64,000 nucleotides of DNA, taken from NCBI GenBank assembly GCA_963727775.1, contig CAVSHB010000001.1, forward strand, positions 96,001-160,000. Reading direction: 5' to 3'. Origin of the DNA: an uncultured Nitrospiraceae bacterium (GTDB taxonomy: Bacteria; Nitrospirota; Thermodesulfovibrionia; Thermodesulfovibrionales; SM23-35). Made by a program: the position numbers and the translations under genes. The notes below the pieces were generated by a model. It did no database searches. It saw only the letters and a list, made by a program, of their open reading frames with translations, and had not been told where the DNA came from. This document shows positions 2,216-56,605 of the stretch, piece by piece (position 1 is the first letter of the stretch; each line of letters opens with the position of its first letter).

Positions 2216-3076
2216 ATGATTAAACATTCACCAGACAAGAACGAAATAATATCTGCAATTCGACAAACTGCAAATGAGTTGGGTAGGTCACCTTCTCGCT
2301 CTGCGTTTATCGGTCATACTGGCATTAGCGAATATCAGGTTCTTAAATATTTCCCGAGTTGGAATAGTGCTGTGTTAGAGGCCGGATTGGAGCCAGATAC
2401 TTCAAATGTGCAGATTGATGATGATACCTTAATTGTAGATTGGAGCAATGTTGTACGGCTCTTGCGCCAAATTCCCACCCGTATTCAATATAGGAATCAA
2501 GGCAAGTTCAGCGCTTCATCATTTGAGCATCGTTTCGGACCATGGTCACGCATTCCAGATAGATTCAGAGTATTCGCCACGAATAAACCTGAATGGAATG
2601 ATATTATAGCACTCTTACCTGTTCAAGCATCTAATACGACAGTAAAAAATCAACCAGTGGCTGATGCAACTACAAATTTAGGAACACGTCATTGCGCTAA
2701 AAAGCACTCAAAATTGAGCGATCGTCCAATCTACGGCAATCACTTGGACTTTCGTGGTCTACGGCATGAGCCAGTAAATGAAAATGGTGTTATTTTCCTT
2801 TTTGGCATTGTTGCACGTGAACTTGGCTATTCAGTAGAAGCTGTACAGGCGGGGTTTCCGGACTGCGAAGCTAAAAGACAAATAGATCCAGGCAAGTGGC
2901 AGCGTGTTCGAATTGAGTTTGAATATGAAAGCAGAAACTTTCGCGATCATGGGCACCCTTCAGATCTTTGTGATGTCATCGTCTGTTGGCGTCACAATTG
3001 GCAAGGATGTCCCGATCACATTGAGGTCATAGAACTCTCTAAGGTTATAAAACAACTTGCTAAATCTGATGAATGA
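2216..3076 (+). CDS. Putative endonuclease: N-terminal homing-endonuclease-associated-like repeats plus C-terminal PD-(D/E)XK-like domain
   Basis: Two helical repeats (LGRSPS...YFPSWNSA; LRQIPT...RFGPWS), then FPDC...RIEFEYES...CDVIVCW. Confidence 0.65.
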   Translation: MIKHSPDKNEIISAIRQTANELGRSPSRSAFIGHTGISEYQVLKYFPSWNSAVLEAGLEPDTSNVQIDDDTLIVDWSNVVRLLRQIPTRIQYRNQGKFSASSFEHRFGPWSRIPDRFRVFATNKPEWNDIIALLPVQASNTTVKNQPVADATTNLGTRHCAKKHSKLSDRPIYGNHLDFRGLRHEPVNENGVIFLFGIVARELGYSVEAVQAGFPDCEAKRQIDPGKWQRVRIEFEYESRNFRDHGHPSDLCDVIVCWRHNWQGCPDHIEVIELSKVIKQLAKSDE

Positions 3077-5012: not shown

Positions 5013-5585
5013 TTATACTTTTACCAATTCCTTCCCTGCCTCATAAGCATCTTTTAAAGCCGAAGGATTTTTTAAAATCGCGCCCTTTGCATCGACGCCC
5101 AAATAGCTTAATGTCTTATGTCCGGGGACGCTGACTGTCCTGAAAAATGCTTTTGCTGAGACCTCTGCGCATTGGACCCCTATTTCTTTTTTCATGCCGC
5201 CTACCAGCAGTAAAAGGCCCTTTCTACCGTAAGGTCCTTCAGGTATCGGTGTTTTCAGCAGATATTTTTCGCACCAAAAGCACTGGCATCTGTCTATCAT
5301 TATCTTAGTCTGAGCACTGAGGGCGAAGAAAAATATGGGCGACGCAAGTATGATCCGGTCGGCAGTCCGTATTGCATCATAGATTTGGGCCATTTCGTCT
5401 TCAAATATACAAATCCCTGTGTCGTCGCACCCGCCGCAGTTCTGGCATGGAGCGATGTTCATAAGGTTCAGATTGAAGACACGGACATTCTGCCCGGACT
5501 CCTCAATGCCCTGGACCGCCTTCATGAGCAATAGTTCCGTATTGCCTTCTTTTCTCGGGCTGCCCAAAAACGCGACTATGTTCAT
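5013..5585 (-). CDS. Flavodoxin-like / iron-sulfur flavoprotein (NADPH-dependent FMN reductase family)
   Basis: GSPRKEGNT, CxxCxxCxxxxxC, ASPIFF, KIMIDR. Confidence 0.9.
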   Translation of the reverse strand: MNIVAFLGSPRKEGNTELLLMKAVQGIEESGQNVRVFNLNLMNIAPCQNCGGCDDTGICIFEDEMAQIYDAIRTADRIILASPIFFFALSAQTKIMIDRCQCFWCEKYLLKTPIPEGPYGRKGLLLLVGGMKKEIGVQCAEVSAKAFFRTVSVPGHKTLSYLGVDAKGAILKNPSALKDAYEAGKELVKV

Positions 5586-5599
5586 TCGCGCTTCTCCAT

Positions 5600-7102
5600 T
5601 TATTTCTTCTTCCCTTTTTTGAATTCCGCCCAGTCTTTCATATGCTGCAGGTTTTCATTGAGATACCACCATCCGTATTTAAAAGCCGTGTAATCCGGCG
5701 CGCCGGTCATGGCTGAGGCGTATCGGATGGAATTTGAATAGAAAAGCCATTGCCGTATCCACATCTGTTCTATGGACTCATCGAAGGGGTTTGTTTTGTC
5801 TGCAGTCCCATCCTCCCATGCTTCAGTAATGAGTTTTGTTGCAGCGAGGACCATCTCGTCGGTTTCCCTGGTGGTACTTTCGAGTTTCGCAAAATGTCCT
5901 CTGACCCAGTCTGTGCTGTGACAAGTGTAGCAAATCTTTTTTATAATATTACGCCTTTGTTCCTGTTCCGGTTTATCGATGAGATATTCTGATGCAGCCT
6001 CCCCGCTGAATGTAACCGGCATGGGCAGGCCGTCTTTGTTCCTGATAATTGTGGTGTCTCCTGACTTCGGTTGTGGGTGGCTGTAAATAAGGCCGAAAAG
6101 CCTGACCCACAATCTGGACCCGAAATCATGGGTCCTGTCGACAATCACGTTGTTGTCAGGCGACACGATAAGGCTGTTATGGCAGACCGAACATGTCGGG
6201 GCCTTAAAGTCTTTCCCTAACCTCCACGGCACGTTTGTAAAGTCCCAGGCGCTGCCTTTTGATGAATAGATATTGCCGTGTTTGCTCTCTTCGTACACGT
6301 CCCACGCGGGGACGTCAGGTTCATGGTGGCACTGGCTGCAGGTATAAGGCTTCCTTGCGACTTCTATTAAAAATCCGTGGCGAGGATGACAAGCTGAACA
6401 GGCGCCTGAACTACCGTCGGGATTCACCCTCCCAACCCCCTGGTTCGGCCAGTTGGTCAGCGCGGGTACCACAATATCCCCGATTTTTACGGAGATGGTT
6501 TTTGTGCCCTTTGCCTCAACCTTTGTGCCGTGGCAACCGAGGCATGTTTCACGCAAGGTATCTTCCGAGGGCTTGGTCGCAAAAAAGCTTTTATTGCCGA
6601 CCTTCCTCACCCCGGTCACTGTATCTACCAATGTATGATAGACCGGATTATCCATGAGATCTTTATAGGCCATGGACTTCTTGCTACCAAGAAATTGTTT
6701 TGCCTCTGTCGGATGACAGATTTTGCAATCATTTGGTGTTACAACCACATTTATCCTCTGTCCCATGTGTTCGAAATTGTCCTTGTGGACCTCCGGATTC
6801 CGGCTATGACATTCGAAGCAACCTACTGCATATGTCCTCAATTCCCCGGGAAGAACTTCAGCAGAAATCCTTTTCTCTAAAGCGGCTTTACCCATAGCCT
6901 CAGCAGGGATTGTCTTTGAGTGCCTGCTTGTTAACCAGTCTTTTACGATCCCCGGCGTATAAATCTTATGACATCCGATGCAGGTCTTTGTTTGAGGACT
7001 CAATGGGACACCGGACAGCAGGTCTTCGTCCTCTGCGAATACCATATTCAAGGAAAACAATAAAAGGACTGAAGCCAGCGTTATGTATGCTATTGATTTC
7101 AT
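5600..7102 (-). CDS. Octaheme cytochrome c, hydroxylamine oxidoreductase family
   Basis: Signal peptide; eight CxxCH motifs; YEESKHG and APTCSVCH HAO-family motifs. Confidence 0.88.
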   Translation of the reverse strand: MKSIAYITLASVLLLFSLNMVFAEDEDLLSGVPLSPQTKTCIGCHKIYTPGIVKDWLTSRHSKTIPAEAMGKAALEKRISAEVLPGELRTYAVGCFECHSRNPEVHKDNFEHMGQRINVVVTPNDCKICHPTEAKQFLGSKKSMAYKDLMDNPVYHTLVDTVTGVRKVGNKSFFATKPSEDTLRETCLGCHGTKVEAKGTKTISVKIGDIVVPALTNWPNQGVGRVNPDGSSGACSACHPRHGFLIEVARKPYTCSQCHHEPDVPAWDVYEESKHGNIYSSKGSAWDFTNVPWRLGKDFKAPTCSVCHNSLIVSPDNNVIVDRTHDFGSRLWVRLFGLIYSHPQPKSGDTTIIRNKDGLPMPVTFSGEAASEYLIDKPEQEQRRNIIKKICYTCHSTDWVRGHFAKLESTTRETDEMVLAATKLITEAWEDGTADKTNPFDESIEQMWIRQWLFYSNSIRYASAMTGAPDYTAFKYGWWYLNENLQHMKDWAEFKKGKKK

Positions 7103-7129
7103 GGCCGCTCTTTTCAGGAAGGCTGTCGC

Positions 7130-7624
7130 CTACTCAACCTTCTTGAACCTCTTTTTTACGGCGCAGCAAATAGGACATTTATCGGGCGGCTCCCCTTCGA
7201 CTGTATGACCGCATACCTGGCAGACATAATAATCAACCTCGGGGTTGTTACCGAGCTTTTCGAGCGCTTTTTTGTAAAGGCCAGCGTGGATTTTCTCGAC
7301 CGCGTTTGCAAGACTGAATGATGTCTCTGCCCGCTTATTGCCCTCTGCCTGTGCATCTTCAATCATATGCGGATACATATCCTGGAACTCAAATGTCTCA
7401 CCTGCGACAGCGGCTTCAATATTCTCTTTTGTGCCCTTGATGTCTCCGAGTTCCCTCAGGTGGTTTAGAGCATGCACTGTTTCCGACTCGGCAGCGGCCC
7501 TGAAGAGTTTTGCGACCTGTTTGTACCCTTCTGCCTCGGCCTTTACCGCAAAAGCGAGATATTTTCTGTTTGCCTGGGATTCACCTGCGAATGCTTCCTT
7601 AAGATTTTTTTCGGTTTTAGTCAT
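7130..7624 (-). CDS. rbr: Rubrerythrin
   Basis: AFAGESQANRKY, ExxH pairs, C-terminal CQVC...CPIC rubredoxin domain. Confidence 0.93.
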   Translation of the reverse strand: MTKTEKNLKEAFAGESQANRKYLAFAVKAEAEGYKQVAKLFRAAAESETVHALNHLRELGDIKGTKENIEAAVAGETFEFQDMYPHMIEDAQAEGNKRAETSFSLANAVEKIHAGLYKKALEKLGNNPEVDYYVCQVCGHTVEGEPPDKCPICCAVKKRFKKVE

Positions 7625-7678
7625 ATCGACCTCCTCATTTTTAGATTGCTGATATAATATTTTAATACAATAAAAATC

Positions 7679-7999
7679 CTATCCCCGGTTAGTTCTTATT
7701 ACATCGTCAACCCAACTCAGCGCAGCTGATACCGCGGGAAATCCGATGGTGCTTGTGAGCAGGATTATCGTATGGTATATATCCTCATCCTTCGCGCCTG
7801 CCTTTAATGCCCGTCTCGTATGAGAATGGACCGCACCCTCGGATTTCATGGCGGCAGCAGCGGCAAGCTGTATGAGTTGAGACGTTTTTTCATCAAGCGG
7901 ACCTGAAGCGCTCGCGGCCTTGCCGAGATTATCAACTGCCTTCATGAACCCCTTAAACCTTTTTCTCAGTTCAACATAATGATCCGGCAGTTTCTGCAT
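7679..7999 (-). CDS. Carboxymuconolactone decarboxylase (CMD/AhpD-like) family protein
   Basis: GPLDEKTSQLI...EGAVHSH...TIGFP; SD AGGAGG before ATG 7999. Confidence 0.85.
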   Translation of the reverse strand: MQKLPDHYVELRKRFKGFMKAVDNLGKAASASGPLDEKTSQLIQLAAAAAMKSEGAVHSHTRRALKAGAKDEDIYHTIILLTSTIGFPAVSAALSWVDDVIRTNRG

Positions 8000-8047
8000 G
8001 CCCACCTCCTTGGATTTATACATATAAAAATATCACCTATTGGTCCT

Positions 8048-9265
8048 TTATTCAAATTTCTTGTGATATGCTTTTACATTGTTTGCAAATTCTTTGCCGA
8101 ATTTGTAGCAGAGTTCGTGATCTTCAGGGGAAGGTTTGTAATGCACCTGAATTCCCGGTTCCACTGCTTCGATCCCCATCCGTTTAAATTCTTCGTAGAT
8201 GTCTCTGACCGCTCCGCCGCCCCAGCCGTAGCTGCCGAAGGCCCCGACAATGCGGTTTTTCGGTTTAAGCCCTCTCAAATATGTCAAAAATTCTGCGATG
8301 GTCGGAAACATGGAATTGTTCAGAGTCGGTGAACCGATGAGACATCCTCTTGCCTTCCAGAATTCTTTTACCGCAAAGCTTACAGGATCCGCTCTGAGTT
8401 TTATAATTTTTACATCGACCCCCTCGTCTTTAATCCCCTGCATGATAGGGACAGTCATCTCTTCGGTGCTATGCCACATTGTATCGTATATTATTACAAC
8501 CCTCAAGTCTGCTTTCCCGTCAGCCATATCGAGATACATGTTAACGATCTTCGACGGATCTTCCCTCCATATTATCCCGTGGTCAGGGGCAATCATGTCT
8601 ATTTCAAGACCCAACTTACTGACTTCAGCGATTTTGTTTTTTATTAAAGCGCCGAAAGGCATAAGGATATTCGCATAGTAATCTTTTACAGCGTCTTCCA
8701 ATTCAGTTACAGAAAAACAGGTAATGAATTCATCGTCGAATCTCACAGCGGATGCGTAATGCTGTCCGAAAGCATCCTGACTTATAAGGAGCCTGTCCTC
8801 TTTTATATATGTCATCATAGAGTCGGGCCAATGGAGCATAGGCGTTTCCAGAAAAAGCAATGTCCTTTTTCCGATACTTAAAGTATCACCTGTTTTTACG
8901 ATTCGGATGTCCCATTTTGATGTGTCGAAAAACCTGTCGAGGCCTTTCCTGCCTTTGGCGGTCATATAGAGAGCAGCCTTCGGCGTGAGACGCATGATAT
9001 CCCCGATACTTGAGACATGATCATTTTCGATATGGTTTATTACGATATTCTTTATTTTAGAGGGGTCTACAAGACTTTTTATATTATCGATGGTCATCCC
9101 GGAGAACTCATGCCTGACGGTATCAAACAGCGTTATCTGCTCATCTATAATCAGGTAATTATTATATGTTGTTCCGTTTGGGGTAACATAACCATGGAAA
9201 TCCCTGACCGCCCAGTCAATCACTCCTACCCAATAAATATCAGGTTTTATTTCTAAAGCCTTCAT
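8048..9265 (-). CDS. fprA: Flavodiiron protein (O2/NO reductase, FprA type)
   Basis: GTTYNNYLI, HIENDH, HWPDSM, DAFGQH, APDHG, flavodoxin domain FGSYGWGG. Confidence 0.93.
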   Translation of the reverse strand: MKALEIKPDIYWVGVIDWAVRDFHGYVTPNGTTYNNYLIIDEQITLFDTVRHEFSGMTIDNIKSLVDPSKIKNIVINHIENDHVSSIGDIMRLTPKAALYMTAKGRKGLDRFFDTSKWDIRIVKTGDTLSIGKRTLLFLETPMLHWPDSMMTYIKEDRLLISQDAFGQHYASAVRFDDEFITCFSVTELEDAVKDYYANILMPFGALIKNKIAEVSKLGLEIDMIAPDHGIIWREDPSKIVNMYLDMADGKADLRVVIIYDTMWHSTEEMTVPIMQGIKDEGVDVKIIKLRADPVSFAVKEFWKARGCLIGSPTLNNSMFPTIAEFLTYLRGLKPKNRIVGAFGSYGWGGGAVRDIYEEFKRMGIEAVEPGIQVHYKPSPEDHELCYKFGKEFANNVKAYHKKFE

Positions 9266-9319
9266 AAAATACCTCCTTTTTAAATTTTATTCTTACAATC
9301 AAGACATGTCCCGTAAGAT

Positions 9320-10321
9320 TCAAAGTGGTTGCCCATAATTTCGGACCCCTGAACAACGGGGGTCCGCTGCATCAAATGACCGGTAAAAATAGTAGCTATG
9401 GGCGGGACACCCACCCATACAGGAAGAATAATGTTTACAGGTCTCGATCAGACATATATTTTTACCGTATTTTTTGAAATCGGCTAATATGGGATTTCTC
9501 AATAGCTTATCTATTCCTTCTTCCAGTAAATTCCCAAGGCAAAATTCTTTAAAGCCAAAAAACAGGTTGCACGGGAAAGCGGAGCCGTCAGGCATTACCG
9601 CTATCTTTGATATGCCGGCGTCGCATCTGCTATGGGCTTGCACGCCATACTTATAGAACCCTGAAGCCGCTACAAAACCTGTATCCAACGTTCCCTTCAG
9701 GTCTGTTTTTATTTCTGAATATATTTCCATGAATTCAGGGAATGAAAAAGAGGAATGTTTATTGCCTATAATATCCTCATGCAGTAGATAATATCGTTTA
9801 ACCCCAAGGTTTGCAAGATAAGAAGCAAGGTCGCGGATTTCATCCTTATTTTTCTGTAGCAAAGTGCTTTTCACGACCGGACTTTTCCCTGATGCAAGCA
9901 TCTGTTTAATCCCGGTGACGGCTTTGTCGAAATTGTACGACATGGTCAACGAGTTGTGTGTTTTTGAAAACCCATGTACGGAAAATCCGACATTCATCCT
10001 CTCAGTCCGGATTTCTGAAAACCGGTCCACAACCTCGGGGAGGCTGCCGTTTGTGCTGATATTGACCGTTATATTAAAGCCGGTAACATCTTTCACGAAA
10101 TCCCTCATCCATGGAACGAGCATGGGCTCGCCGCCGAGTATATCTATCTCGGAGAGGCCGGTTTTTATAAGCATATCGACAAGGGAATATGCATCTCCGG
10201 CGTTCATGTCCTTTTGCGGAACCGGTCCTGATATGTTATGGTTAAAGCAAAAACAGCAGGTTTGATTGCATCTCAATGTCGGATAAAGCTGTATAAATGA
10301 AGGATGGTCCACTTTTCTCAA
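9320..10321 (-). CDS. Radical SAM/SPASM domain protein
   Basis: CNQTCCFC, GGEP, C-terminal CDAG...PDG..FPC...CxxxxxCMGGC. Confidence 0.88.
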   Translation of the reverse strand: MRKVDHPSFIQLYPTLRCNQTCCFCFNHNISGPVPQKDMNAGDAYSLVDMLIKTGLSEIDILGGEPMLVPWMRDFVKDVTGFNITVNISTNGSLPEVVDRFSEIRTERMNVGFSVHGFSKTHNSLTMSYNFDKAVTGIKQMLASGKSPVVKSTLLQKNKDEIRDLASYLANLGVKRYYLLHEDIIGNKHSSFSFPEFMEIYSEIKTDLKGTLDTGFVAASGFYKYGVQAHSRCDAGISKIAVMPDGSAFPCNLFFGFKEFCLGNLLEEGIDKLLRNPILADFKKYGKNICLIETCKHYSSCMGGCPAHSYYFYRSFDAADPRCSGVRNYGQPL

Positions 10322-10422
10322 GTATAATCAATCTTGACATTATTTTCTAACATGGTAGTATTGTCTAATAAAAACACGGCAAGAATTCTTATTATACAAA
10401 TCTGACTATATTTGGAGGAGTT

Positions 10423-10923
10423 ATGAATGCAATCGAGCTGTCAATAAAAATGGAAAAGGATGCAATAGATTTTTATACTGAAGCCGCCGGCAAGACAAAA
10501 CACCCGGTCGCGAAAAAGATGTTCCTGTCTATAACGGAAGACGAAAAAAGACATCTGCATATGCTTTCTCAAATATTCAAGGAAGTTGACATAAAGATTG
10601 ACGAAGTCAGTCCGATGAAGAATATGCAGACGATCTTTAAGGCCTTGAAGGACGCTATGATGCAAAGAGTTGAAGCAACTTCGGATGAACTTGAGGGGTT
10701 TAAGATTGCCTCGCAGATGGAAAAAGAGGGAATTGAATTCTATAAAAAAGCAGGGGCCGAGGCTAAGAAAGAAAAAGAGAAGGCCCTTTTTGAGAGGCTT
10801 GTCAAAGAAGAGCAGCAACACTATGATATTTTTGCAAATACATATTTTTTCCTTAAAGACACCGGAAACTGGTTTATGTGGGAGGAGCACAGTATTGTCG
10901 ATGGAGGCACGCCCTGGGCTTAA
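10423..10923 (+). CDS. Ferritin-like / rubrerythrin-family protein
   Basis: Duplicated E...FY...EExxH diiron motifs. Confidence 0.85.
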   Translation: MNAIELSIKMEKDAIDFYTEAAGKTKHPVAKKMFLSITEDEKRHLHMLSQIFKEVDIKIDEVSPMKNMQTIFKALKDAMMQRVEATSDELEGFKIASQMEKEGIEFYKKAGAEAKKEKEKALFERLVKEEQQHYDIFANTYFFLKDTGNWFMWEEHSIVDGGTPWA

Positions 10924-10983
10924 TGTTCCGGCGGGATTTGCCGGCGGAATTTGAATAATCAAACTTTTATAGGAGGATTGTTT

Positions 10984-11238
10984 ATGGGGTACACTAAAGT
11001 TGCATTAGAAGATAAAATCCTTGAGATGTATCCCGAGATTTCAAAAAATGGGATCTCGGTCAGCCTTGATTTTGATGAATCTAAAAACGCCTATATTGTA
11101 AAATTCAAAAAAGACGCAAAAGAACTTACTACGCATATTGAAAAAAAGGATGCCGACGATTGTATGAATAATATTAAATGTGTTTATCTCGGCGTCCAGA
11201 TCGGGCAGTTCATAAAAAATTTTGAGATAAGAAGGTAA
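10984..11238 (+). CDS. Hypothetical protein
   Basis: SD AGGAGG before ATG 10984; co-oriented with flanking redox genes. Confidence 0.7.
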   Translation: MGYTKVALEDKILEMYPEISKNGISVSLDFDESKNAYIVKFKKDAKELTTHIEKKDADDCMNNIKCVYLGVQIGQFIKNFEIRR

Positions 11239-11441
11239 GTTTTTTTGACGGGATTTCCGGGTACCTTTTATTTCTTCAAGATAATAAAAGAGCGCCCCAT
11301 GACTTCAGAAAGAATCCGGGTTGCTTGAAACAGAATGTGCTCTCATGTAAAAATAGAGATTATGTCCTCTCTGTTGCTTTTTGGATTGAAGGGCAAATAG
11401 AGAGGACCTGTCACTAAAATTTAACTTTAAGGAGGTAAGGT

Positions 11442-11627
11442 ATGCCGAAGCCGGTTGTAAATGAAGATGCATGTGAAGGGTGTGCTTCATGCGAGGAGTT
11501 ATGCCCTGAAGTGTTCAAAGTAGGAGATGATGGTAAAGCACATGTTGTAGGGCCGGACAAATGCAGCACTTGCGACTGCCAGGAAGCAGCAGATATATGT
11601 CCTGTCCAGGCCATAACAATAGAATAA
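11442..11627 (+). CDS. Ferredoxin (single 4Fe-4S/3Fe-4S type)
   Basis: CEGCASCEELCP...ADICPVQAI; strong SD AAGGAGGT. Confidence 0.92.
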   Translation: MPKPVVNEDACEGCASCEELCPEVFKVGDDGKAHVVGPDKCSTCDCQEAADICPVQAITIE

Positions 11628-11676: not shown

Positions 11677-11706
11677 AAAATCTATTTTTAAATTACCGTA
11701 CTGTTA

Positions 11707-11769
11707 TCAGCAAGAGCTTTTGCACTTGCATGTCGTTGAAATCCCCTTCGATACCTTTTTAATTTTCAT
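11707..11769 (-). CDS. 20-aa Cys-rich peptide MKIKKVSKGISTTCKCKSSC, candidate RiPP precursor
   Basis: Not in the ORF track; SD AAGGGGGTG just upstream of the ATG; 42 bp after the rSAM stop; ends TGA TAA; followed by the terminator. Confidence 0.7.
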   Translation of the reverse strand: MKIKKVSKGISTTCKCKSSC

Positions 11770-11811
11770 AATTCACACCCCCTTTCATGGAACAATCTGA
11801 GGACACACCGC

Positions 11812-12948
11812 TTATTTTTTGATTATATCATATAAATTGCATTTATAAAGGTCTTTCCCTGACGGGCCGCTGAGGAGCGACGCTCTGAACCTGCATCCCC
11901 CCCTGCACAACTCGGTATAATTACAATCACAATCCAACTCATTAAGTCTGACAGGCCTGATCCTTTGCCAGCATTTTCCGAGACCGTCCTTAATTTTGCC
12001 GATCGGACTGTCGGAATAAAATGTGCATTTTGCGACCCTGCCGTCAGCCATTACCGCCATGAGATGCAAGCCGCAGGCAAAACCTGAAGCGCCTGAATGA
12101 GGACCTCCTCCGCGTCCGTACCCGAGATACTTCCCTCCTGTTTCCGGGCTGACCTGAAATCCGGCGTTTTCTTTTAACCGGCCGGTTGCGCATGGAACAT
12201 CAACATTCCAGTCTTTTATCCCCATGCCGTAAAACAATTTTTCCATTCCGTCAAAATCTCCAAGATTTCCGTGGTGGACCATTGTTGAGACTGATACTTC
12301 AAATCCGCAGCCGACGGCAAGTTCGGCAGCTTCGATCGCCGACCTGAACGAACCTTTTCCCCTTAACGCATCATGCGCCTCTTCAAGACCGTCTATACTG
12401 AGTTGGATCTCATCCACATTCAGGTGAATAAGTATTTTTTTATTCAACAATAATCCGTTTGTAAACAGGACCTTTCGCAAAAGAAAATCAGGGAGCATAT
12501 CATTGATTTCCCGAAATCTGCCATGGATGAGCGGTTCTCCGCCTGTAATGAGGACCCTCAAGCCCTGCATATTCTCAAATTCTCTCAGGATATCTCTAAT
12601 CTGAGTAACTGAAAGCTCTGAAAATGTTGTATCGCCAATATAACAATGCCTGCACCTAAGATTACACTTGTTCGTTATCTGTAATTCGAGATACCGCAGG
12701 GAGGGCCGGGGAGATTCAATCACTGCAGGACGTTTCAATAAGACTTTGTCCCTGGTCAGTATTCTTTCTTCGAGGCAATAATCTATAAAATTGCTGTCTT
12801 CGCTATCGCATCCGGTCACGGATGCGCATCTCTGAAGAAACTCAAATGAACTGTCATCAAGCTCATAGAGGTCGTCCTTTTTAATATGGTAAACAGACGG
12901 CGTTTCAAGCCATTTAAGGACCGATTCCCGTGAAAGAAAATACTTCAT
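11812..12948 (-). CDS. Radical SAM/SPASM protein with N-terminal RRE-like extension, candidate peptide maturase
   Basis: About 80-aa N-terminal domain (PSVYHIKKDDLYELD...), CNLRCRHC, TGGEP, C-terminal CxCxxxxxCRGGC. Confidence 0.85.
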   Translation of the reverse strand: MKYFLSRESVLKWLETPSVYHIKKDDLYELDDSSFEFLQRCASVTGCDSEDSNFIDYCLEERILTRDKVLLKRPAVIESPRPSLRYLELQITNKCNLRCRHCYIGDTTFSELSVTQIRDILREFENMQGLRVLITGGEPLIHGRFREINDMLPDFLLRKVLFTNGLLLNKKILIHLNVDEIQLSIDGLEEAHDALRGKGSFRSAIEAAELAVGCGFEVSVSTMVHHGNLGDFDGMEKLFYGMGIKDWNVDVPCATGRLKENAGFQVSPETGGKYLGYGRGGGPHSGASGFACGLHLMAVMADGRVAKCTFYSDSPIGKIKDGLGKCWQRIRPVRLNELDCDCNYTELCRGGCRFRASLLSGPSGKDLYKCNLYDIIKK

Positions 12949-13062: not shown

Positions 13063-14493
13063 ATGACGACTTCAAAAGCAATAATCCTTTGTGTTGATGA
13101 TGATCCTGATCTTCTGGACATCAATTCAAATATATTGCAACAGGCAGGGTATGAAGTACTGAAGGCCTCTACAGGCAATAAATGCCTTCGCATGACTAGG
13201 GAAAAGCGGCCTGATCTGGTTTTACTTGATGTTATCCTCCCTGATATCGACGGGTACGATGTTTGCCGCCAAATCAAGGATACTCCTGAATTAGCGGGGA
13301 CTTATGTGGTCATGATATCGGGGATGGAGACTTCCTCCGAAAAGCAGATAAAGGGGCTTGAAGCGGGGGCGGACGGATATGTCGCGCGTCCGATTTCAGC
13401 ACAGGAGCTCCTGGCCCGTGTTCAGGCGATGATCAGGATCAAACAGACGGAAACAGCCCTCCGTAAAAGTATGGAAAGATACCAGACGCTGGTCGAAACG
13501 ATGAATGAAGGCGTGGGGATAGTAGACAAAAACGCATTGGTTACCTTTGTTAATGAAAAAACCTGTGAAATAATCGGATACCCGCGTGATGAGATTATCG
13601 GGCGTCCTGTGACTGATTTTCTTGACGTTATCAGCCGTAAGGTATTCATAGAGCGTATGGCAGAGGAAAAGAGGGGAATATCCGTCCCTTTTGAATTAAC
13701 ATGTATTAACAAAGACGGGCATAAAATTTATGTGAATATATCATCCAGGCCGATTATTGAGGAGGGGGGCAACTACAGGGGCGGCTTTGCCGTTATAACC
13801 GATATAACGGCGCGTAAACAGGCTGAGGCGAGGATTAAGAAACTGAATGAGGAACTTGAAAAACGCGTTGTCGGGCGCACGAAACAACTTCAGGCGGTCA
13901 TTGAAGAGCTGGAGAACGAAATCATTGACCGCAAGAGGGCTGAAGGAGCTCTTAAAAAAAGCGAAGAGCAGTTCCGTGCAATTTTTAATGCAGCTCATGA
14001 TTCTATCTTTATCAAAGATTACTCACGCAGATACCTGCGGATCAATCCCTCAATGGAGCAACTTTTTAATATGCCCGCATCGGAATTAATCGGAAAGACA
14101 GACGAAGAGTTATTCGGAGAGCAGGTGGGAAAACATACAAGGGAAGTTGACAAACGTGTCCTGAAGGGAGAGATTATTGAAGAAGAGCATACCAGGCCTG
14201 TTAAGGATGATTTCAGGACGTTCCATGTCGTAAAAGCTCCGATGCGGGACGATGCCGGAAAAATCGTTGGGATTTGCGGTATTGCCCGCGATATCACGGA
14301 GCGCAAGCTTGACGAGGTAACCTTAATGAGATATGCCGAAAGGCTTCGCTCTCTTTTTAACCGTTTGTTTGAAATACAGAAAGCCGAAGGACGGGACATT
14401 GCACAGGAACTGCATGACGAAATCGGGCAGGCTTTGACCGGGATTAAGCTTGCTGTCGACATGATGAAAAAGTCCCGATCAAATGATATCTGA
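13063..14493 (+). CDS. REC-PAS-PAS signalling protein ending in a truncated HisKA_3 domain
   Basis: Receiver (VDDD, LLDVILPD), two PAS/PAC (DITARK, DITERK), IAQELHDEIGQ H-box, stop soon after with no ATPase domain. Confidence 0.8.
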   Translation: MTTSKAIILCVDDDPDLLDINSNILQQAGYEVLKASTGNKCLRMTREKRPDLVLLDVILPDIDGYDVCRQIKDTPELAGTYVVMISGMETSSEKQIKGLEAGADGYVARPISAQELLARVQAMIRIKQTETALRKSMERYQTLVETMNEGVGIVDKNALVTFVNEKTCEIIGYPRDEIIGRPVTDFLDVISRKVFIERMAEEKRGISVPFELTCINKDGHKIYVNISSRPIIEEGGNYRGGFAVITDITARKQAEARIKKLNEELEKRVVGRTKQLQAVIEELENEIIDRKRAEGALKKSEEQFRAIFNAAHDSIFIKDYSRRYLRINPSMEQLFNMPASELIGKTDEELFGEQVGKHTREVDKRVLKGEIIEEEHTRPVKDDFRTFHVVKAPMRDDAGKIVGICGIARDITERKLDEVTLMRYAERLRSLFNRLFEIQKAEGRDIAQELHDEIGQALTGIKLAVDMMKKSRSNDI

Positions 14494-14827
14494 GCCGGCA
14501 TTAATAAAAGTATTAATTAAAAAACTCTGTAAGAAGTTCTGCCCTTATTACAAGCCTTCAAAAAATAATGAACTTGCCTGTATGGGGTCCATTGTAGTAG
14601 AAAGATTGCTGAACAAAAACGGAAATATCCCTTTTGATAAGCCGGAGAAACTCGATGATGTTACCGGAAAAAAACTTGCGCAGACAATGTGCCCCGCCTG
14701 TCCTTTTTATGAAAGCGATTGCGATTTTGTCCAGTCGGGTCTTGCACCTTGCGGCGGGTTTATTTTATTGGGAAATCTGCTTGAAAAGAATACTATTAGT
14801 ATTGACGATATCAGGAATATCATCTAA
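14483..14827 (+). CDS. Cys-rich hypothetical protein
   Basis: CxxxC, CPAC, CDF, PCGG; overlaps the upstream stop. Confidence 0.65.
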   Translation: MISEPALIKVLIKKLCKKFCPYYKPSKNNELACMGSIVVERLLNKNGNIPFDKPEKLDDVTGKKLAQTMCPACPFYESDCDFVQSGLAPCGGFILLGNLLEKNTISIDDIRNII

Positions 14828-15393: not shown

Positions 15394-17118
15394 TTGGACT
15401 ATTCGATTAAGATAGGCGGCGAGGCCGGCCAGGGTATTCAGACAATCGGCGATACCCTTGCGAGGGTTTTTTCGAGGGCGGGATACCATGTCTTTACCCA
15501 TCAGGATTACGAGTCCCGAATAAGGGGCGGCCACAATTTCTTCCAGGTAAGATTATCGGACAGCCCTGTCACGGCATCGAGAGAAAAAATTGACATTATC
15601 GTTGCCCTGGACAAAGAAAGCATATCGCTCCATGAAAAAGAACTTTCGGAGAAAGGTCTTATAATCTACGACTCGTCTGCCTTAAAAGAGAATCACGTCA
15701 AGTCTTATTTCTTTGATGTCCCTTTCACAAATTTAGCCATTGAGTATGGCGGGAACAAGATCATGGCGAACACCGTTGCTACCGGGGCTGTATTGGGGAT
15801 GCTGAGGCTTACCCCGGATATCCTCACAGGTATTATTGAATCTGCATTTCAAAAGAAGGGCGAAGATATTATAAAATCCAACATTCAGGCTGCAAAGGCA
15901 GGATATGATTTTGCTGTAAGCCACTGCGCGCAATGTCCCTTTTCTTCTGCGCCCTTCTCAGGACCAAAGATGCTGATTGCCGGAAGTGAGGCCATCGCAC
16001 TCGGGGCCATTGCCTCCGGCTGTAAATTTTATTCGGCCTACCCGATGACTCCTTCTACCGGGATTATGAATTATCTCGCGGACAAAGAAAAGGAATACGG
16101 GATCGTTGTTGAGCAGGCGGAGGATGAGATTGCGGCGATAAATATGGCCTTAGGCGCGTCCTTCGCAGGAGTAAGGGCAATGACAGGGACCGCCGGAGGA
16201 GGGTTTGCATTAATGGTTGAAGGGCTGTCGCTGGCAGGGATGACGGAGACCCCCATAGTTATCGCACTCGGACAAAGGCCTGCGCCGGCAACAGGTCTGC
16301 CGACAAGGACGGAACAGGCTGACCTGCTATTTGCCGTACATGCGGCACATGGAGAATTCCCGAGGGCCATATTTGCGCCGGCCACTCCTGAACAGGCATT
16401 TTATCTTACGAATAAGGCATTTGATATTGCAGAGAAATATCAGATCCCTGCCTTTGTGATTTTCGACCAGTACCTTGCCGATTCAGGGTGGACGTTTGAA
16501 GGGTTTGATTTAAGCAGGACCATATTTAAGGATTACAGAATAAGGACCGGTGAACTGGAGAAACTCGAAGATTATAAAAGACATGCCCTAACAGACACCG
16601 GGGTTTCCCCTTTGGGCATCCCCGGCGATTCAAGGCACCTGATTGTAACAGACAGCGACGAGCATGATGAAGCAGGGCATATCACAGAAGATGCTGAAAC
16701 AAGAATAAAAATGGTCCGGAAAAGACTGTTCAAAAAGCTGCCGCTGATCAGAGAGGAAATAGGACAGCCTTTTTTTTATGGGAACAGTCATCCGGAAATT
16801 GTAATCGTCGGCTGGGGCTCTACCTTCGGAGTAATGAAAGAGATTGTAGATATCCTTTCAAGCGGCAAGAACATTGCCCTGTTGCATTTTACAGAGGTTT
16901 ATCCGTTCCCTTTGCCTGAGAAATTTGATTACCTCAAAATTCTGAATGGCTCAAAGCTCAGTGTCTGTATCGAAAACAACGCCACAGGACAGTTTGCGCG
17001 CCTTATCCGTGCGGAGGCCGGATACGAATTCAAGACAAGGATCAATAAATATGACGGGAGACCTTTTACTGTAGAAGGTCTTTTAGGTGAACTGGATGCC
17101 CACATCGGAAGATTATAA
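15394..17118 (+). CDS. 2-oxoacid:ferredoxin oxidoreductase, fused gamma-alpha subunit
   Basis: GGEAGQG, ESRIRGGH, YPMTP, EDEIAA, TGLPTRTEQ. Confidence 0.93.
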   Translation: MDYSIKIGGEAGQGIQTIGDTLARVFSRAGYHVFTHQDYESRIRGGHNFFQVRLSDSPVTASREKIDIIVALDKESISLHEKELSEKGLIIYDSSALKENHVKSYFFDVPFTNLAIEYGGNKIMANTVATGAVLGMLRLTPDILTGIIESAFQKKGEDIIKSNIQAAKAGYDFAVSHCAQCPFSSAPFSGPKMLIAGSEAIALGAIASGCKFYSAYPMTPSTGIMNYLADKEKEYGIVVEQAEDEIAAINMALGASFAGVRAMTGTAGGGFALMVEGLSLAGMTETPIVIALGQRPAPATGLPTRTEQADLLFAVHAAHGEFPRAIFAPATPEQAFYLTNKAFDIAEKYQIPAFVIFDQYLADSGWTFEGFDLSRTIFKDYRIRTGELEKLEDYKRHALTDTGVSPLGIPGDSRHLIVTDSDEHDEAGHITEDAETRIKMVRKRLFKKLPLIREEIGQPFFYGNSHPEIVIVGWGSTFGVMKEIVDILSSGKNIALLHFTEVYPFPLPEKFDYLKILNGSKLSVCIENNATGQFARLIRAEAGYEFKTRINKYDGRPFTVEGLLGELDAHIGRL

Positions 17119-17947
17119 AGGACAGACCCCTGCGTGGTGTCCCGGATGCGGAAACTTCGGCATCCTTAAAGCATTTAAAGACGCGGTGGTTGAACTCGGC
17201 TTAGAGCCGCATCAGTTTACGATTGTCTCCGGTATAGGCCAGGCGGGGAAATTCCCTCACTATTTGAGATGCAATATGTTCAACGGCCTTCACGGGAGAC
17301 CTTTGCCTGTCGCAACGGGAATTAAACTTGCCGATCATGAAATGCTTGTAATCGCTGTCGCAGGGGATGGAGACTCTTACGGGGAAGGCGGCAACCACCT
17401 TCTGCATGCAATGAGAAGGAACATCAATGTGAAGCTCTTTGTGCACGACAACCAGATATACGGCCTTACAAAGGGGCAGGCGTCTCCTACGAGCATGGAA
17501 GGTATGATCACGAAGAATCAGCCCTTCGGTGTTTTCTCTGAACAACTGAACCCGATGGCGTTGGCAGTGGCCAATGACTGCAGTTTTGCGGCGAGAGGAT
17601 TTGCAGGTGATGTTGAACACCTGAAAGGTTTGATTACGGAGGCGATAAACCATAAAGGATTCTCATTGGTTGACATACTCCAGCCATGCGTGACATTTAA
17701 TAAAATAAATACCTACGACTGGTACAGGCAGAGAGTCTATTATATCGAGTCTGAACACAGGCCTGAAGACAGGATGGAAGCTTTCAAAAAAGCACTCGAA
17801 TGGGGGGACCGTATTCCTATCGGTATAATCTACAAAAACCGCCGCCCTGTTTTGGAAGAGAGAATACCGGTGATTAAGGACAAGCCCCTGGTAAAGCAAG
17901 CTTTTGATTCATCAAAAATAGAGACAACGCTGAAAGAATTCTATTAA
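17096..17947 (+). CDS. 2-oxoacid:ferredoxin oxidoreductase, beta subunit
   Basis: WCPGCGN, GDGD TPP motif, YGLTKGQASPT. Confidence 0.93.
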   Translation: MPTSEDYKGQTPAWCPGCGNFGILKAFKDAVVELGLEPHQFTIVSGIGQAGKFPHYLRCNMFNGLHGRPLPVATGIKLADHEMLVIAVAGDGDSYGEGGNHLLHAMRRNINVKLFVHDNQIYGLTKGQASPTSMEGMITKNQPFGVFSEQLNPMALAVANDCSFAARGFAGDVEHLKGLITEAINHKGFSLVDILQPCVTFNKINTYDWYRQRVYYIESEHRPEDRMEAFKKALEWGDRIPIGIIYKNRRPVLEERIPVIKDKPLVKQAFDSSKIETTLKEFY

Positions 17948-19496
17948 CCCGAATAAGGCAGACATTGTTCAAAATTTTATTTAACTCGATGAATTTATTG
18001 AAAATATCTTTATTGGTAGCATTAATAAAAATGGCGCATCTGGGTTCTTCATGGGTCTATGCAATATATAGTGGTTTGAGTATCCTATGTTCATGGATGA
18101 AAAAGTGTTTTATACAAAGATATTGGGAATCAAGCTGCCTTGGTTTGTAAAACAGGTTATTATGGACGAAGCAACTCAGCGAATCGACATTTATATGGAG
18201 CATGAGAAAGATATACGCGTCAGGTGTCCGGAATGTGGTGCGTTTTACGGCATGTACGATCACGCACCTGAGCGCGTTTATCGTCATTTGAACACCTGCC
18301 AAATGGAAACCTACATTCATGTTCGGCCACCGCGAGTAAACTGCCCTACGCATGGAGTTAAGCAGATAGAATCGGCGGTTGGTGAGAACGGCTCGGATAT
18401 GAGTCATGCCTTTGAGAGTCTGGTCATTCGTGTTGCTCAAGAGTGCAGCATCGAGGGTACGGCCCGGCTTTGTGGATTGAGTTGGGATAAAGGATGGAAT
18501 GCTCTGGAGCGAGCGGTTAATCGTGGTCGCGGACGCAAGGTGCATCGCATCCCAAGCCGTATCGGAGTGGATGAGAAGTCCATTGCGAAGGGACACAAAT
18601 ACGAGTCTCTGGTTTACGATCTTGATGCAGGGACTGTTGAGTTTGTATGGGATGATCGTGGCCAGGAAAGTCTTGAAAGCTATTACCGGCAGTTTAGCAA
18701 GGAAGAACTGTCTGACGTTAAAGCTGTGGCAATGGACATGTGGGACCCGTATATTGCGGCTACAAAAGCTTATGTACCTGGTGCGGAAAGGAAGATCGTC
18801 TTTGATCGTTTTCATGTGATGAAGCATGTTCTGGCTGCGGTGGATGAGGTCAGAAAGAGAGAACATCGTGAACTTTCGGAGTGCGGAGAGCAAACTTTGA
18901 AGGGAACCAGATATCTGTGGTTGTGGAGCGAGGAGAATATTCCATCGTGGCGACGTGGAGAGTTTGAGGCATTGCGAGCCAAAGACTTGCAGATATGCCG
19001 GGCGTGGGCTATAAAAGAGAACCTTCGGCATCTGTGGGAGTATCGGTATGAGGCCCATATGAGAAACTATTTCAAGCGCTGGTATTTTTGGGCAACTCAT
19101 TCTCGACTTGAGCCTATTAAGAAAGCGGCTAAGACGGTTAAGTCCCATATAGACAATATCGTTACTTACGCACGGCATCGCATTACCAACGCCTTGGGCA
19201 AGGCAATCAACGGCAAGATTGAGAAAGTTAAACGAATGGCTTGTGGTTTTCGCAATCGCTCCCATTATAGAACCGCCATTTATTTTCATTGCGGCGGACT
19301 GGACTTGTTTCCCAAACCGCCTGCTCAACCAACACTATGCTTTCGAGCAACTTAAACACTATCTGTTGGGGGTATCCATTAAAATGTCTGTTCCGGCATA
19401 AAAATATTCCTCAAACCATTAGTTCAAGGTACACTAAGGTATCGAAAAATAAAATATTTCACAACATCTGCCTTATTCCAATTGCATTTTTCGGGT
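17947..19496. mobile_element. Small inverted-repeat-bounded (MITE-like) element hosting the ISL3 copy
   Basis: Left ACCCGAATAAGGCAGACATTGTTCAAAATTTTATTT; right end reverse-complemented ACCCGAAAAATGCA..GAATAAGGCAGATGTTGTGAAATATTTTATTT; TTAA at both junctions. Confidence 0.55.
18087..19355 (+). mobile_element. ISL3-family transposase, probably inactive; element about 18043-19390
   Basis: Zinc finger CPEC...CPTHG, IGVDEKS, AMDMW, FDRFHV, GFRN; third catalytic Glu position reads K (TNALGKAIN). Confidence 0.9.
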
Positions 19497-20841: not shown

Positions 20842-21881
20842 TTAAATCTCATCTTTTAAAATGTTATTTTTGACATCGTATTGTTGATAAAATATTGGTA
20901 AACTGAACTCTCCTCTGAGTCTTTTGATATAAGTCTTTGCATCAAAGGTCGGGGACGGTGGAGCAATTATTACAAGCTTTTTAGCTCTTTTTCGTTTGGC
21001 CAAAATGCATATTCAAGTATTTGACCGATAGCTTCTCTAATTGCTGCTTTGGCTGTTTGAGATGTTTTGATCTCGTAAAAAATAAAATTCCCTTTTTCTT
21101 TAACTACTATGTCAACCTTCGTTTGATAGCCCATACCATTTTCTGTGCCTACGTTCCCTTTTTTATGACTTGCATCTAAAATAGAAAAAATTTTTGTCTG
21201 CATCTCATTATGGAAAAGTGATTTATCTTTCTTCCCACCTTTTGATTTCGTTACTGTTTCATTTTTCCCAGGATTATGCCCAGGCTTAAAGATGAATTTA
21301 TTGGAAATGGCTTTAGAAAGGTTAGGGTCTTGAGTCTTGTTAAGCAAGTTGTAATGAAACGCGGGGATTGCTGGGTCTGATTTTTCGATTTCCAATGGTT
21401 CATCTAATAGGTGCATATCGAATATTTTGAACCTAATGTTGAAAAATGTATTCTTACTGGTTTCCCAAAAGGCTTTTAAATCGAGATTCAATTTTCTTAG
21501 GTCGGCTTCCATTTCTGATAGCCAACCATTCTTTTTATAAATGTTGTATATCCCTTTAGATTCTTCACCTGAAATAACTTTAACTGAATCGATTTTTCCA
21601 AGCCACCATTTCTTGTTTTTGTTAGAATTGATTTTTTCTAGTGAATAAAAGCTTATATTGTAAATCGCATCTTTATGAATATCTGTTTTATTATTGAACT
21701 GTTGCAAAAAACCATAGACATATTCATCAACAACTTTGTCTGTGTCAAAGTTCCATTCTTCGTGCCCAAACCCTGTAATAGACTCATACGATCCTTCATC
21801 TCTACTTTTTCCTATCCTTCCTGAAGGGGAAATCCAATAATTATTGTTCCAGCATATACGTGCTATTTTCTCATCAGGCAT
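20842..21881 (-). pseudogene. PD-(D/E)XK-type nuclease, frameshifted near the C-terminus
   Basis: VDIVV...FYEIKT...IREAIGQILEY motif; adding one A in the A-run near 20990 extends the frame (RAKKLVIIAPP...DEI) to a stop at 20842. Confidence 0.7.
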
Positions 21882-55788: not shown

Positions 55789-55930
55789 CTTTGCCTCCGG
55801 ATGTATTTGAGCAACAATATCAATAATTATTTAAAGCATACTATAGATTTAGAATCATTGGAAATCATGTCTTCATCAGGTCATCCCTGATCTTCTCAAT
55901 TTCTTCTCTGCCTAATGACGGTGTGTTCTG

Positions 55931-56605
55931 CTAATGGTTATGCTCTTCAGTCTCTTCAGTCTCCTCGCCCTCAGATTCTTTTGAAGGAGCAGGCATCTTG
56001 TGTTCCATCTTACCGGACATCATGCCGCCCATCATACCGCCCATCATGCAATTACTCATGGACATTTTATCCTGTACTCTTGCTTTCATGTCTTTGATAG
56101 TATCCAGCATATGTTTTTTGTCGGCCGGTTTGACGCCGTTGATAATTTTTTCCTGCATATTCATTATATCGATCATCATCTGCATCATATCATGCATCAT
56201 CATCCCATGCCCCATCATCTGCTGCATCATCGGCATCTGATGTCCGCCGCCCATCATGCCCTTTCCCTTCATCTGTTGCATTTTAGGGCACATCATCATG
56301 GGTTGTTTTCCCTCCTCCATTTGCATCGCGGGCTGTTTCATCTCTTCTTTCCCTTTACCCATCATGCCGCTATCCGACTGCGCAAACACAGAACCGCAAA
56401 AAATAAATAAAATCCCAAGGCAAATCAGTAATCTTTTCATTCTTCCTTCCTCCTTACTTTTGTTTTTTACGATGAATTTATCGGGGTGTTGATCAAACTT
56501 CTCCTTGCAAATCCTTGCACAAAAGTAATATCTTGTACCCTTGTATACGAATAATGGCCGCAGTTCTATTTTATCCACGCCCATAGTGCATAAGGGGTCT
56601 TTCAC
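55931..56605 (-). CDS. YHS domain in frame with a secreted Met-rich protein (likely second start at 56440)
   Basis: DPLC...YYFC...C...F...P YHS; internal AAGGAGG plus MKRLLICLG signal peptide; very Met-rich body. Confidence 0.7.
   Translation of the reverse strand: MKDPLCTMGVDKIELRPLFVYKGTRYYFCARICKEKFDQHPDKFIVKNKSKEEGRMKRLLICLGILFIFCGSVFAQSDSGMMGKGKEEMKQPAMQMEEGKQPMMMCPKMQQMKGKGMMGGGHQMPMMQQMMGHGMMMHDMMQMMIDIMNMQEKIINGVKPADKKHMLDTIKDMKARVQDKMSMSNCMMGGMMGGMMSGKMEHKMPAPSKESEGEETEETEEHNH

Follow-up and report, generated by a model that had tools for sequence, protein, structure and literature searches.

A conserved 20-residue cysteine-rich peptide, its radical SAM/SPASM enzyme and a third protein as a candidate RiPP system with sister peptides in copper operons

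The 64,000-nucleotide stretch of DNA analysed here, referred to below as the window, comes from an uncultured Nitrospiraceae bacterium (assembly GCA_963727775.1, contig CAVSHB010000001.1, positions 96,001 to 160,000) and carries, just downstream of a gene for a radical S-adenosylmethionine (SAM) enzyme with a SPASM domain, a 20-codon open reading frame (ORF) for a peptide with three cysteines. This ORF is a real, conserved gene, and the enzyme, the peptide and a third, cysteine-rich protein (hereafter X) co-occur as a three-gene system, with X fused to the enzyme in relatives. The peptide is very probably the substrate of the enzyme, and sequence comparisons suggest that the system represents a new family of radical SAM-dependent peptides that are ribosomally synthesized and modified post-translationally (RaS-RiPPs), in which cysteine thioethers are likely to be installed. 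We propose that the 20-mer is bound by a RiPP recognition element (RRE) of the enzyme and oxidised at its CKCxxSC core to yield an intracellular peptide that binds a soft metal, probably Cu(I), a reading to which we assign a probability of about 45%. The coordinates of the features involved are collected in Table 1.

The peptide consists of a basic leader of the form M-x-I-K/R-K followed by a C-terminal C-K-C-x-x-S-C core, lacks a signal peptide, and across the family has a precursor length of 19-21 residues with three cysteines. Of the 30 loci around the enzyme's nearest homologues (our own locus counted), 28 have the same 20-codon ORF 34-260 nucleotides downstream of the enzyme gene. Among 75 distinct 20-codon copies from enzyme-anchored loci, one of which is misframed by one residue, four positions outside the demands of the search filter are nearly invariant (I3 in 73 copies, K5 in 72, K15 in 73 and S19 in 72), codons differ synonymously between copies, and each of the three stops occurs (TAA in 38, TGA in 21 and TAG in 16). 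A larger set of 176 copies, in part selected by pattern, gave entropies of 0.31, 0.25 and 1.16 bits at the three codon positions of the core versus 1.94 bits in the downstream flank. A chance ORF is ruled out by the 28 conserved loci, the residue constraint and the synonymous variation, and selenocysteine read-through of a TGA after the last cysteine is ruled out by the use of all three stops across copies. None of 10 tested peptides is present in a collection of 15 billion proteins, which implies that the precursor has been missed by gene calling, and seven peptides searched against NCBIfam matched no family.

The initial annotation of this DNA had read the ORF as a hidden precursor gene of a family that it did not recognise, with a strong Shine-Dalgarno sequence, a start 42 nucleotides beyond the stop of the radical SAM gene and a terminator behind it, and had expected short cysteine-rich ORFs beside homologues of the enzyme; all of this holds, with no curated Pfam or NCBIfam family matching the peptide. 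A Shine-Dalgarno-like sequence also precedes 118 of 121 metagenomic copies, the remaining three lying at contig ends. The terminator, shared with the convergent ferredoxin gene, has a 15-bp stem and a folding energy of -18.2 kcal/mol (z -3.5; none of 200 shuffled sequences was equally good), and was missed by a simple terminator scanner because its loop has 10 nucleotides and the scanner's limit is 8. Of 57 loci in which the peptide gene immediately follows the radical SAM gene, 32 have an extended -10 box at the stop of the latter, versus 0 of the 36 loci in which it does not, after three misbinned loci (L001, L029 and L128) had been moved by hand (raw counts 30/54 and 2/39). The peptide gene thus likely has its own predicted promoter and is not merely a downstream cistron of the enzyme gene. 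Three RNA runs from the same study gave no cover of the genes and weigh neither for nor against their expression.

The enzyme, the only copy of its family in this genome, is recovered by the radical SAM model PF04055 with 70.5 bits (cutoff 29.5), and its CxxxCxxC motif (C95/C99/C102) is invariant in 46 sequences. Its C-terminal region bears seven SPASM cysteines, C292, C308, C340, C342, C348, C352 and C370 (spacing C292-x10-G303-x4-C308, these positions and C340, C342, C348 and C352 being present in 46/46 sequences, C370 in 45/46). The accessible text of PMC6231123 gives CX9-15GX4C-gap-CX2CX5CX3C-gap-C as the seven-cysteine motif of radical SAM/SPASM enzymes, and this motif is present here, but with CX2C reduced to CXC; the Pfam model PF13186 matches 10 of the 46 family members. 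Two auxiliary Fe-S clusters with seven cysteine ligands are accordingly predicted. An eighth invariant cysteine is absent (C253 occurs in 24/46) and H295 is conserved in 42/46, which suggests an open or histidine-ligated site on auxiliary cluster I (Aux I), as in CteB. The closest named homologues come from Nitrospirota, including Thermodesulfovibrionales, and the best structural and sequence matches are the RiPP maturases SkfB, SuiB and CteB, while no curated NCBIfam cutoff is passed (best 94 bits against a cutoff of 650).

An AlphaFold2 model of the enzyme (predicted local distance difference test score, pLDDT, 94; predicted template-modelling score 0.92) opens with a three-strand sheet followed by two helices. 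It aligns over its full length, the N-terminus included, with SuiB (Z 26.9, root-mean-square deviation (rmsd) 4.1, 357 aligned residues, model residues 2-375) and with SkfB (Z 26.2, rmsd 5.2, 324 aligned, model residues 7-364), both of which bear an RRE according to the accessible text of PMC6231123. The N-terminal domain is therefore predicted to be RRE-like, and in this respect the predicted structure bears out the suggestion of the initial annotation that the extension of roughly 80 residues is an RRE. The conserved acidic residues of this domain (E15, D25, D/E26, E29 and E61), among them those on the sheet, would complement the basic leader of the peptide.

SkfB, with its substrate SkfA (PDB 6EFN), is among the closest of the characterised systems: it too combines an RRE, a radical SAM domain and a C-terminal Fe-S domain with a cysteine-containing precursor, and it is the top Foldseek match (E 1.9e-17) and the top PDB sequence match (E 2.5e-29) of our enzyme. 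Identity to it is 18-19%, however, and the seven-cysteine SPASM domain contrasts with the Twitch domain of SkfB, just as a 20-residue precursor ending in a cysteine, the accessory protein X and the lack of conserved protease, exporter or immunity genes set the system apart from that of SkfA. The sactisynthase models TIGR04403 (SkfB; 52.6 bits against a cutoff of 300) and NF045574 (StsB; 56 against 625) are not passed, which, known sactisynthases being divergent, makes membership in the SkfB and StsB families alone less likely. We compared active sites by the six-position profile given in section 7 of PMC10288494. This family has the profile Y-S/T-T-S-G-F (Y-T-T-S at positions 1-4 of this enzyme), SkfB has Y-T-S-S-Q-L, similar over positions 1-4, and CteB has F-F-T-S-H-Q, different at four of the six positions. 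The profile leans towards sactisynthase-like chemistry, being a full match to neither SkfB nor CteB.

We surveyed 97 enzyme-anchored loci with a loose peptide filter; a few of them represent the same genome twice and most have flanks of 1.5-6 kb. They derive from Nitrospirota, deltaproteobacterial lineages, Actinomycetota, Rokubacteria and archaea, and the peptide lies beside the enzyme in 80 of them, so that the pairing first noticed in the window is conserved and extends across phyla. Its position relative to the enzyme varies between downstream, upstream, convergent and overlapping the enzyme stop. At the genome level the enzyme occurs, as a single copy each time, in 130 of 301 Nitrospirota genomes, in 31 of 251 from the phylum to which a Syntrophaceae record (L037) belongs and in 5 of 151 from the archaeal class that includes L047, with further named records in Thermoleophilia, other Actinomycetota, Rokubacteria, Geobacteraceae and Desulfarculaceae. 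A scan of genome contigs, run with the narrower alignment A2, the broad alignment A1 being too divergent, yielded about 19 family members among the best 80 loci. Searching from the side of the peptide recovered at least 121 metagenomic loci, with the enzyme within the available DNA in 80 of 121; many of the loci without enzyme are fragments of 0.3-1.5 kb. No match was found in viral contigs, and carriage by phages is not supported.

The three genes track each other closely among the Nitrospirota genomes. A strict peptide pattern was found in 87 of the 301, all enzyme-positive, and in none of the 171 enzyme-negative ones; a relaxed pattern added 39 of the other 43 enzyme-positive genomes versus 1 of 29 enzyme-negative genomes, giving a peptide match in 126/130 enzyme-positive genomes (two with the His type described below only). 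X is present in 122 of the 301 (119/130 enzyme-positive, 3/171 enzyme-negative), and all three genes in 117, also where they are unlinked. For example, all 11 genomes of one family (f6), in which peptide copies have 19 residues, encode the complete set, unlinked where checked. Overall, several anaerobic lineages of Nitrospirota carry the system almost universally and in one copy. When apart from the enzyme, the peptide gene often stands before TPR-ispE genes (L111-L115, L118 and L121), and in L033 and L041 the same position is held together with the enzyme.

The self-contained two-gene unit envisaged in the initial annotation has to be abandoned, as the third gene, X, is encoded on the opposite strand at a distance of 1.5 kb. 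Seven cysteines of X are invariant (C16, C20, C33, C70, C73, C80 and C90) and its two modules are homologous to each other (hhalign probability 96.7); a single-module form occurs in actinobacterial, archaeal and some deltaproteobacterial loci. Clustering of neighbouring genes showed that homologues of X form the N-terminal part of fused enzymes of 500 residues and, in other phyla, are encoded immediately upstream of the enzyme; elsewhere X is thus adjacent to, divergent from or fused to the enzyme. Most close relatives have X and the enzyme head to head; here they are separated by a gene for a receiver-PAS-PAS-HisKA_3 protein. X has no Pfam or NCBIfam family, and its Atlas matches are unnamed clusters. 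Its model is helical (pLDDT 78), with a best Z of 4.1 among 48,161 solved chains, a background-level result that is no proof of a new fold. From the cysteine pattern we infer that X may bind a metal or an Fe-S cluster and serve the enzyme as a partner, be it electron donor, metal sensor or chaperone.

Where X is unlinked it directly follows a CutA1 divalent-ion tolerance gene at two loci (L283:3743-4356 and L284:3682-4301) and is near one in L286; unlinked X in L285 stands in a different context. The separating receiver-PAS-PAS-HisKA_3 gene of the window (13063-14493, plus strand) has no detected ATPase domain and is possibly truncated; at L006 and L007 the enzyme has a similar gene upstream of it.

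A concrete pointer to a function comes from sister copies of the peptide with His or Tyr at position 17. The relaxed pattern detected these in 11 loci from 10 of 43 enzyme-positive genomes, belonging to six families, and in none of the 29 enzyme-negative control genomes. A gene for a P-type ATPase, in most cases bearing metal-binding domains of the HMA, YHS or HMBD type, is present in nine of the 11 loci, and the other two end at contig edges; several additionally have CsoR-like, CusB-like, outer-membrane efflux or Met-rich genes nearby, and metagenomic fragments beside His-type copies score best against CopA models. Among loci that lie away from the enzyme and are at least 2.5 kb long, a CopA-like gene accompanies 7 of 10 His/Tyr copies versus 1 of 23 others, a count from which a second hit without the CPC motif (L121) was excluded and in which the script missed L271 and L277. 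The His-type copies are thus placed in copper operons, and, because these operons serve copper export, a metal-binding role of the peptide is likely. His-type peptides lie beside the enzyme in three archaeal loci (L047, L290 and L294), and in L310 (G681:C80) a Lys-type and a His-type gene stand in tandem upstream of X and the enzyme; for these reasons the His-type peptides are probably substrates too. A terminator-like hairpin (z below -2) is found behind 153 of 193 non-His copies versus 3 of 15 His copies. Together with the promoter box, this distribution of terminators predicts that the main copy is separately transcribed as an abundant product and that the His copies are operon-internal.

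In the window itself a CopA-type ATPase (53359-56605, minus strand) has ahead of it a YHS-like domain, which is in frame with a protein rich in Met that is probably exported. This is the same kind of neighbourhood that hosts His-type peptides elsewhere.

Based on these observations we propose that the basic leader would pair as a beta-strand with the acidic strand 3 of the RRE, that a core cysteine would bind to Aux I, and that the 5'-deoxyadenosyl radical would then abstract a hydrogen from the invariant neighbour K15 or S19, whereupon one or more thioethers from Cys to C-alpha would form, each with a change of -2 Da. X may assist the enzyme in this process. The predicted product is a small peptide that would stay in the cytoplasm and bind a soft metal, probably Cu(I). 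For the chemistry we give thioether formation about even odds; some other modification appears a distinctly weaker candidate, and a thiooxazole is rather unlikely. More speculatively, the whole might be an oxygen-independent copper-buffering RiPP of anaerobic bacteria and archaea, with a radical SAM enzyme activated or gated by X, a metallophore of the cytoplasm that bears thiooxazoles or thioethers, a Lys-type copy expressed constitutively from the promoter within the enzyme gene and His-type copies recruited to CopA operons, a scenario that we regard as doubtful.

Several observations weigh against the proposal of an RRE-bound, thioether-bearing copper peptide. The main Lys-type copy has no consistent copper or other metal context, so that the metal role is extrapolated from its paralogues; this genome has the Lys-type peptide only, its own CopA operon containing no sister copy; and the His-type copies could bind copper unmodified. 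The assignment of the RRE rests on structure prediction because the Pfam PqqD model matches 0 of the 46 family members; a PqqD row in the Atlas (0.89) is a lead only, and two long helices rather than three follow the sheet in the model. The G-F consensus at positions 5-6 of the active-site profile matches neither the Q-L of SkfB nor the H-Q of CteB, and the chemistry may therefore be new. Finally, 4 of the 130 enzyme-positive genomes have no peptide match and 11 have no X match, and the Nitrospirota genomes are kin whose co-occurrence counts are not independent, for which reason we give no p-value.

Of the competing explanations, an SbtM-like conversion of cysteines into 5-thiooxazoles via the preceding carbonyl would make the peptide an oxygen-independent counterpart of the bufferins made by MNIO enzymes. 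We consider this unlikely, although both invariant non-cysteine residues of the core, K15 and S19, directly precede a cysteine and sister copies of the peptide occupy copper operons. In the accessible text of PMC9204691 SbtM is described as converting a Gly-Cys motif to a thio(seleno)oxazole (-4 Da), and in that of PMC11626156 bufferins are said to need thiooxazoles for copper binding. The selenobiotic peptide systems of SbtM (TIGR04082) resemble ours in having a radical SAM/SPASM enzyme that acts on peptide cysteines in overlapping anaerobic lineages, and one genome (G309) holds both systems, with two copies of our peptide. Our enzyme, however, scores 53.4 bits against TIGR04082 (46.4 in the genome search; cutoff 350), whereas the true SbtM-family maturase of that genome (L320, G309:C1:2233688-2237812), which scores 479 bits and has a short ORF upstream, differs from ours in a far longer N-terminus, in reading GGNP where ours has GGEP, and in its precursor; moreover, our core has no conserved Gly-Cys motif, no signal peptide precedes it, and no selenocysteine signature is present, three different stops being used after the last cysteine. 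Bufferins and methanobactins likewise share cysteine-centred cores and a link to copper with this peptide, whose K/R-rich leader and cysteine-rich tail resemble MbnA as described in the accessible text of PMC3621798. They are made by MNIO (DUF692) enzymes and exported, whereas this peptide lacks a signal peptide and a conserved transporter. The MNIO model PF05114 has no match in the 96.8% complete genome that carries the window, the only genome of interest searched (a control genome scored), and the absence of such an enzyme would fit a thiooxazole made by other means.

Similarly unlikely is a housekeeping RiPP of the SCIFF kind, whose thioether-crosslinked peptide would serve in signalling or regulation and play no part in metal binding, the copper-associated copies being a side branch. 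SCIFF systems are single-copy and distributed across whole lineages, and their precursor has six cysteines in about 45 residues. The present system is comparably single-copy and near-universal in its lineages, with a strongly conserved core and no immunity or export genes; its unlinked peptide gene is often found by the housekeeping genes TPR-ispE-prs, and the CopA operon of the window has no peptide copy. Against this stand the recurrence of His-type copies in CopA operons of six families and the lack of a conserved receptor, regulator, protease or exporter among the shared neighbours. The maturase CteB of the precursor CteA (PDB 5WGG/5WHY; TIGR03974) is alike in its RRE-SPASM architecture and in its seven auxiliary cysteines with an open site on Aux I, as given in the accessible text of PMC6231123, but the precursor here has three cysteines in 20 residues and belongs to no NCBIfam family, a third gene X is present, and TIGR03974 (cutoff 425) is absent from the top 25 NCBIfam matches of the enzyme, none of which exceeds 94 bits.

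The short invariant C-terminal core, together with genes for rubrerythrin-like proteins, superoxide dismutase, nitroreductase, ferredoxin or NifU near the peptide in the window and in some relatives, would also suit a peptide-derived redox cofactor or an Fe-S or sulfur carrier, made by a logic like that of PQQ or mycofactocin for the nearby oxidative-stress and ferredoxin genes. Such neighbours are lineage-specific, though, and no client oxidoreductase family or protease tracks the system across phyla, which makes this reading improbable. We give still less credence to the view that the peptide is not a substrate at all but a regulator or an unmodified metallothionein-like micro-protein, with the enzyme acting on X or on a small molecule. 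The peptide does keep its own predicted promoter and persists when unlinked, and X is cysteine-rich; radical SAM thioethers on a cysteine-rich protein are known from CrpC/CrpA of Methanococcus voltae (accessible text of PMC13692751), where an RRE-SPASM enzyme (TIGR04463) is likewise involved. CrpA, however, is a large repeat protein and not a 20-mer, TIGR04463 lies outside the top 25 matches of our enzyme, and the pairing of a conserved acidic RRE-like surface with a conserved basic leader speaks for the peptide as substrate. That X is fused to the N-terminus of the enzyme in several lineages is easier to reconcile with a partner domain than with a substrate.

Taken at the level of sequence, then, the three-gene system appears to work like an RRE-dependent RaS-RiPP and falls outside the SCIFF, SkfB, StsB, SbtM and MNIO families. 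To our knowledge most radical SAM peptide systems have no known biological role, and here the paralogues in copper operons provide a concrete candidate function. The motifs CKCKSSC and CKCKGSC are absent from one supplement of the compendium of RRE-associated radical SAM enzymes PMC10288494, and we found no published description of the system in the literature, though subscription papers and bioRxiv supplements, which were out of reach, could hold the family. The system is minimal and convenient for study, consisting of a 20-mer, a 378-residue enzyme and a partner X without known family or fold, and its range takes in several anaerobic Nitrospirota lineages, archaea and three or more further groups of bacteria. 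If the proposal of a copper-binding peptide is right, it would add a RiPP class, possibly with a new cysteine chemistry, and would point to a way in which copper might be buffered in anaerobes, which are barred from the oxygen-dependent chemistry of MNIO enzymes, as a radical SAM counterpart of the bufferins and methanobactins.

Table 1. Positions in the window of the genes, domain and signals of the system
Feature	Positions	Strand	Description
Precursor peptide gene	11769-11707	minus	20 codons, product MKIKKVSKGISTTCKCKSSC
Shine-Dalgarno sequence of peptide gene	11786-11776	minus	GAAAGGGGGTG
Predicted extended -10 box	11830-11822	minus	TGATATAAT, inside last codons of radical SAM gene
Bidirectional terminator hairpin	11674-11635	both	between peptide gene and convergent ferredoxin gene
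Radical SAM/SPASM maturase	12948-11812	minus	378 residues
RRE-like domain (predicted)	12948-12724	minus	about residues 1-75; sheet residues 9-29, helices 32-41 and 52-60
Accessory protein X	14483-14827	plus	114 residues; two repeats of a Cx2-3C...C-helix module

The system is embedded in genes of redox metabolism. A redox and oxidative-stress cluster at 5013-11627 encodes a flavodoxin-like reductase, a multiheme cytochrome c, a rubrerythrin, a CMD protein, flavodiiron-like and ferritin-like proteins and a ferredoxin, and a 2-oxoacid oxidoreductase lies at 15394-17947. The redox genes from which the initial annotation had drawn a hint of an intracellular role are indeed present, but this context is lineage-specific, and copper export around the sister copies is more telling. 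The same annotation had seen no adjacent protease or exporter, and in agreement with this none is conserved among the shared neighbours of the enzyme loci.

Within its span lies the gene of a second radical SAM/SPASM protein (9320-10321, minus strand; 333 residues) with no N-terminal extension and no curated family, with homologues that immediately follow the main enzyme in L046 and are found close to it in L003 and L035. It was found in 3 of 5 genomes tested, the query having no match in the enzyme-positive genome G013, and is not supported as a required partner, being 18% identical to the main enzyme and near it in 4 of 49 loci only. In 13 of 49 loci a rubrerythrin-like gene is followed by that of a conserved 95-residue protein (10951-11238 of the window, plus strand), which has no Pfam or NCBIfam family; in L185 this protein is encoded directly before the peptide at the end of a nitroreductase-superoxide dismutase-rubrerythrin operon. 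Elsewhere the window encodes a 303-residue protein with no Pfam family (20970-21881, minus strand), an HNH-repeat protein (2216-3076, plus strand) and an ISL3 transposase (18087-19355, plus strand).

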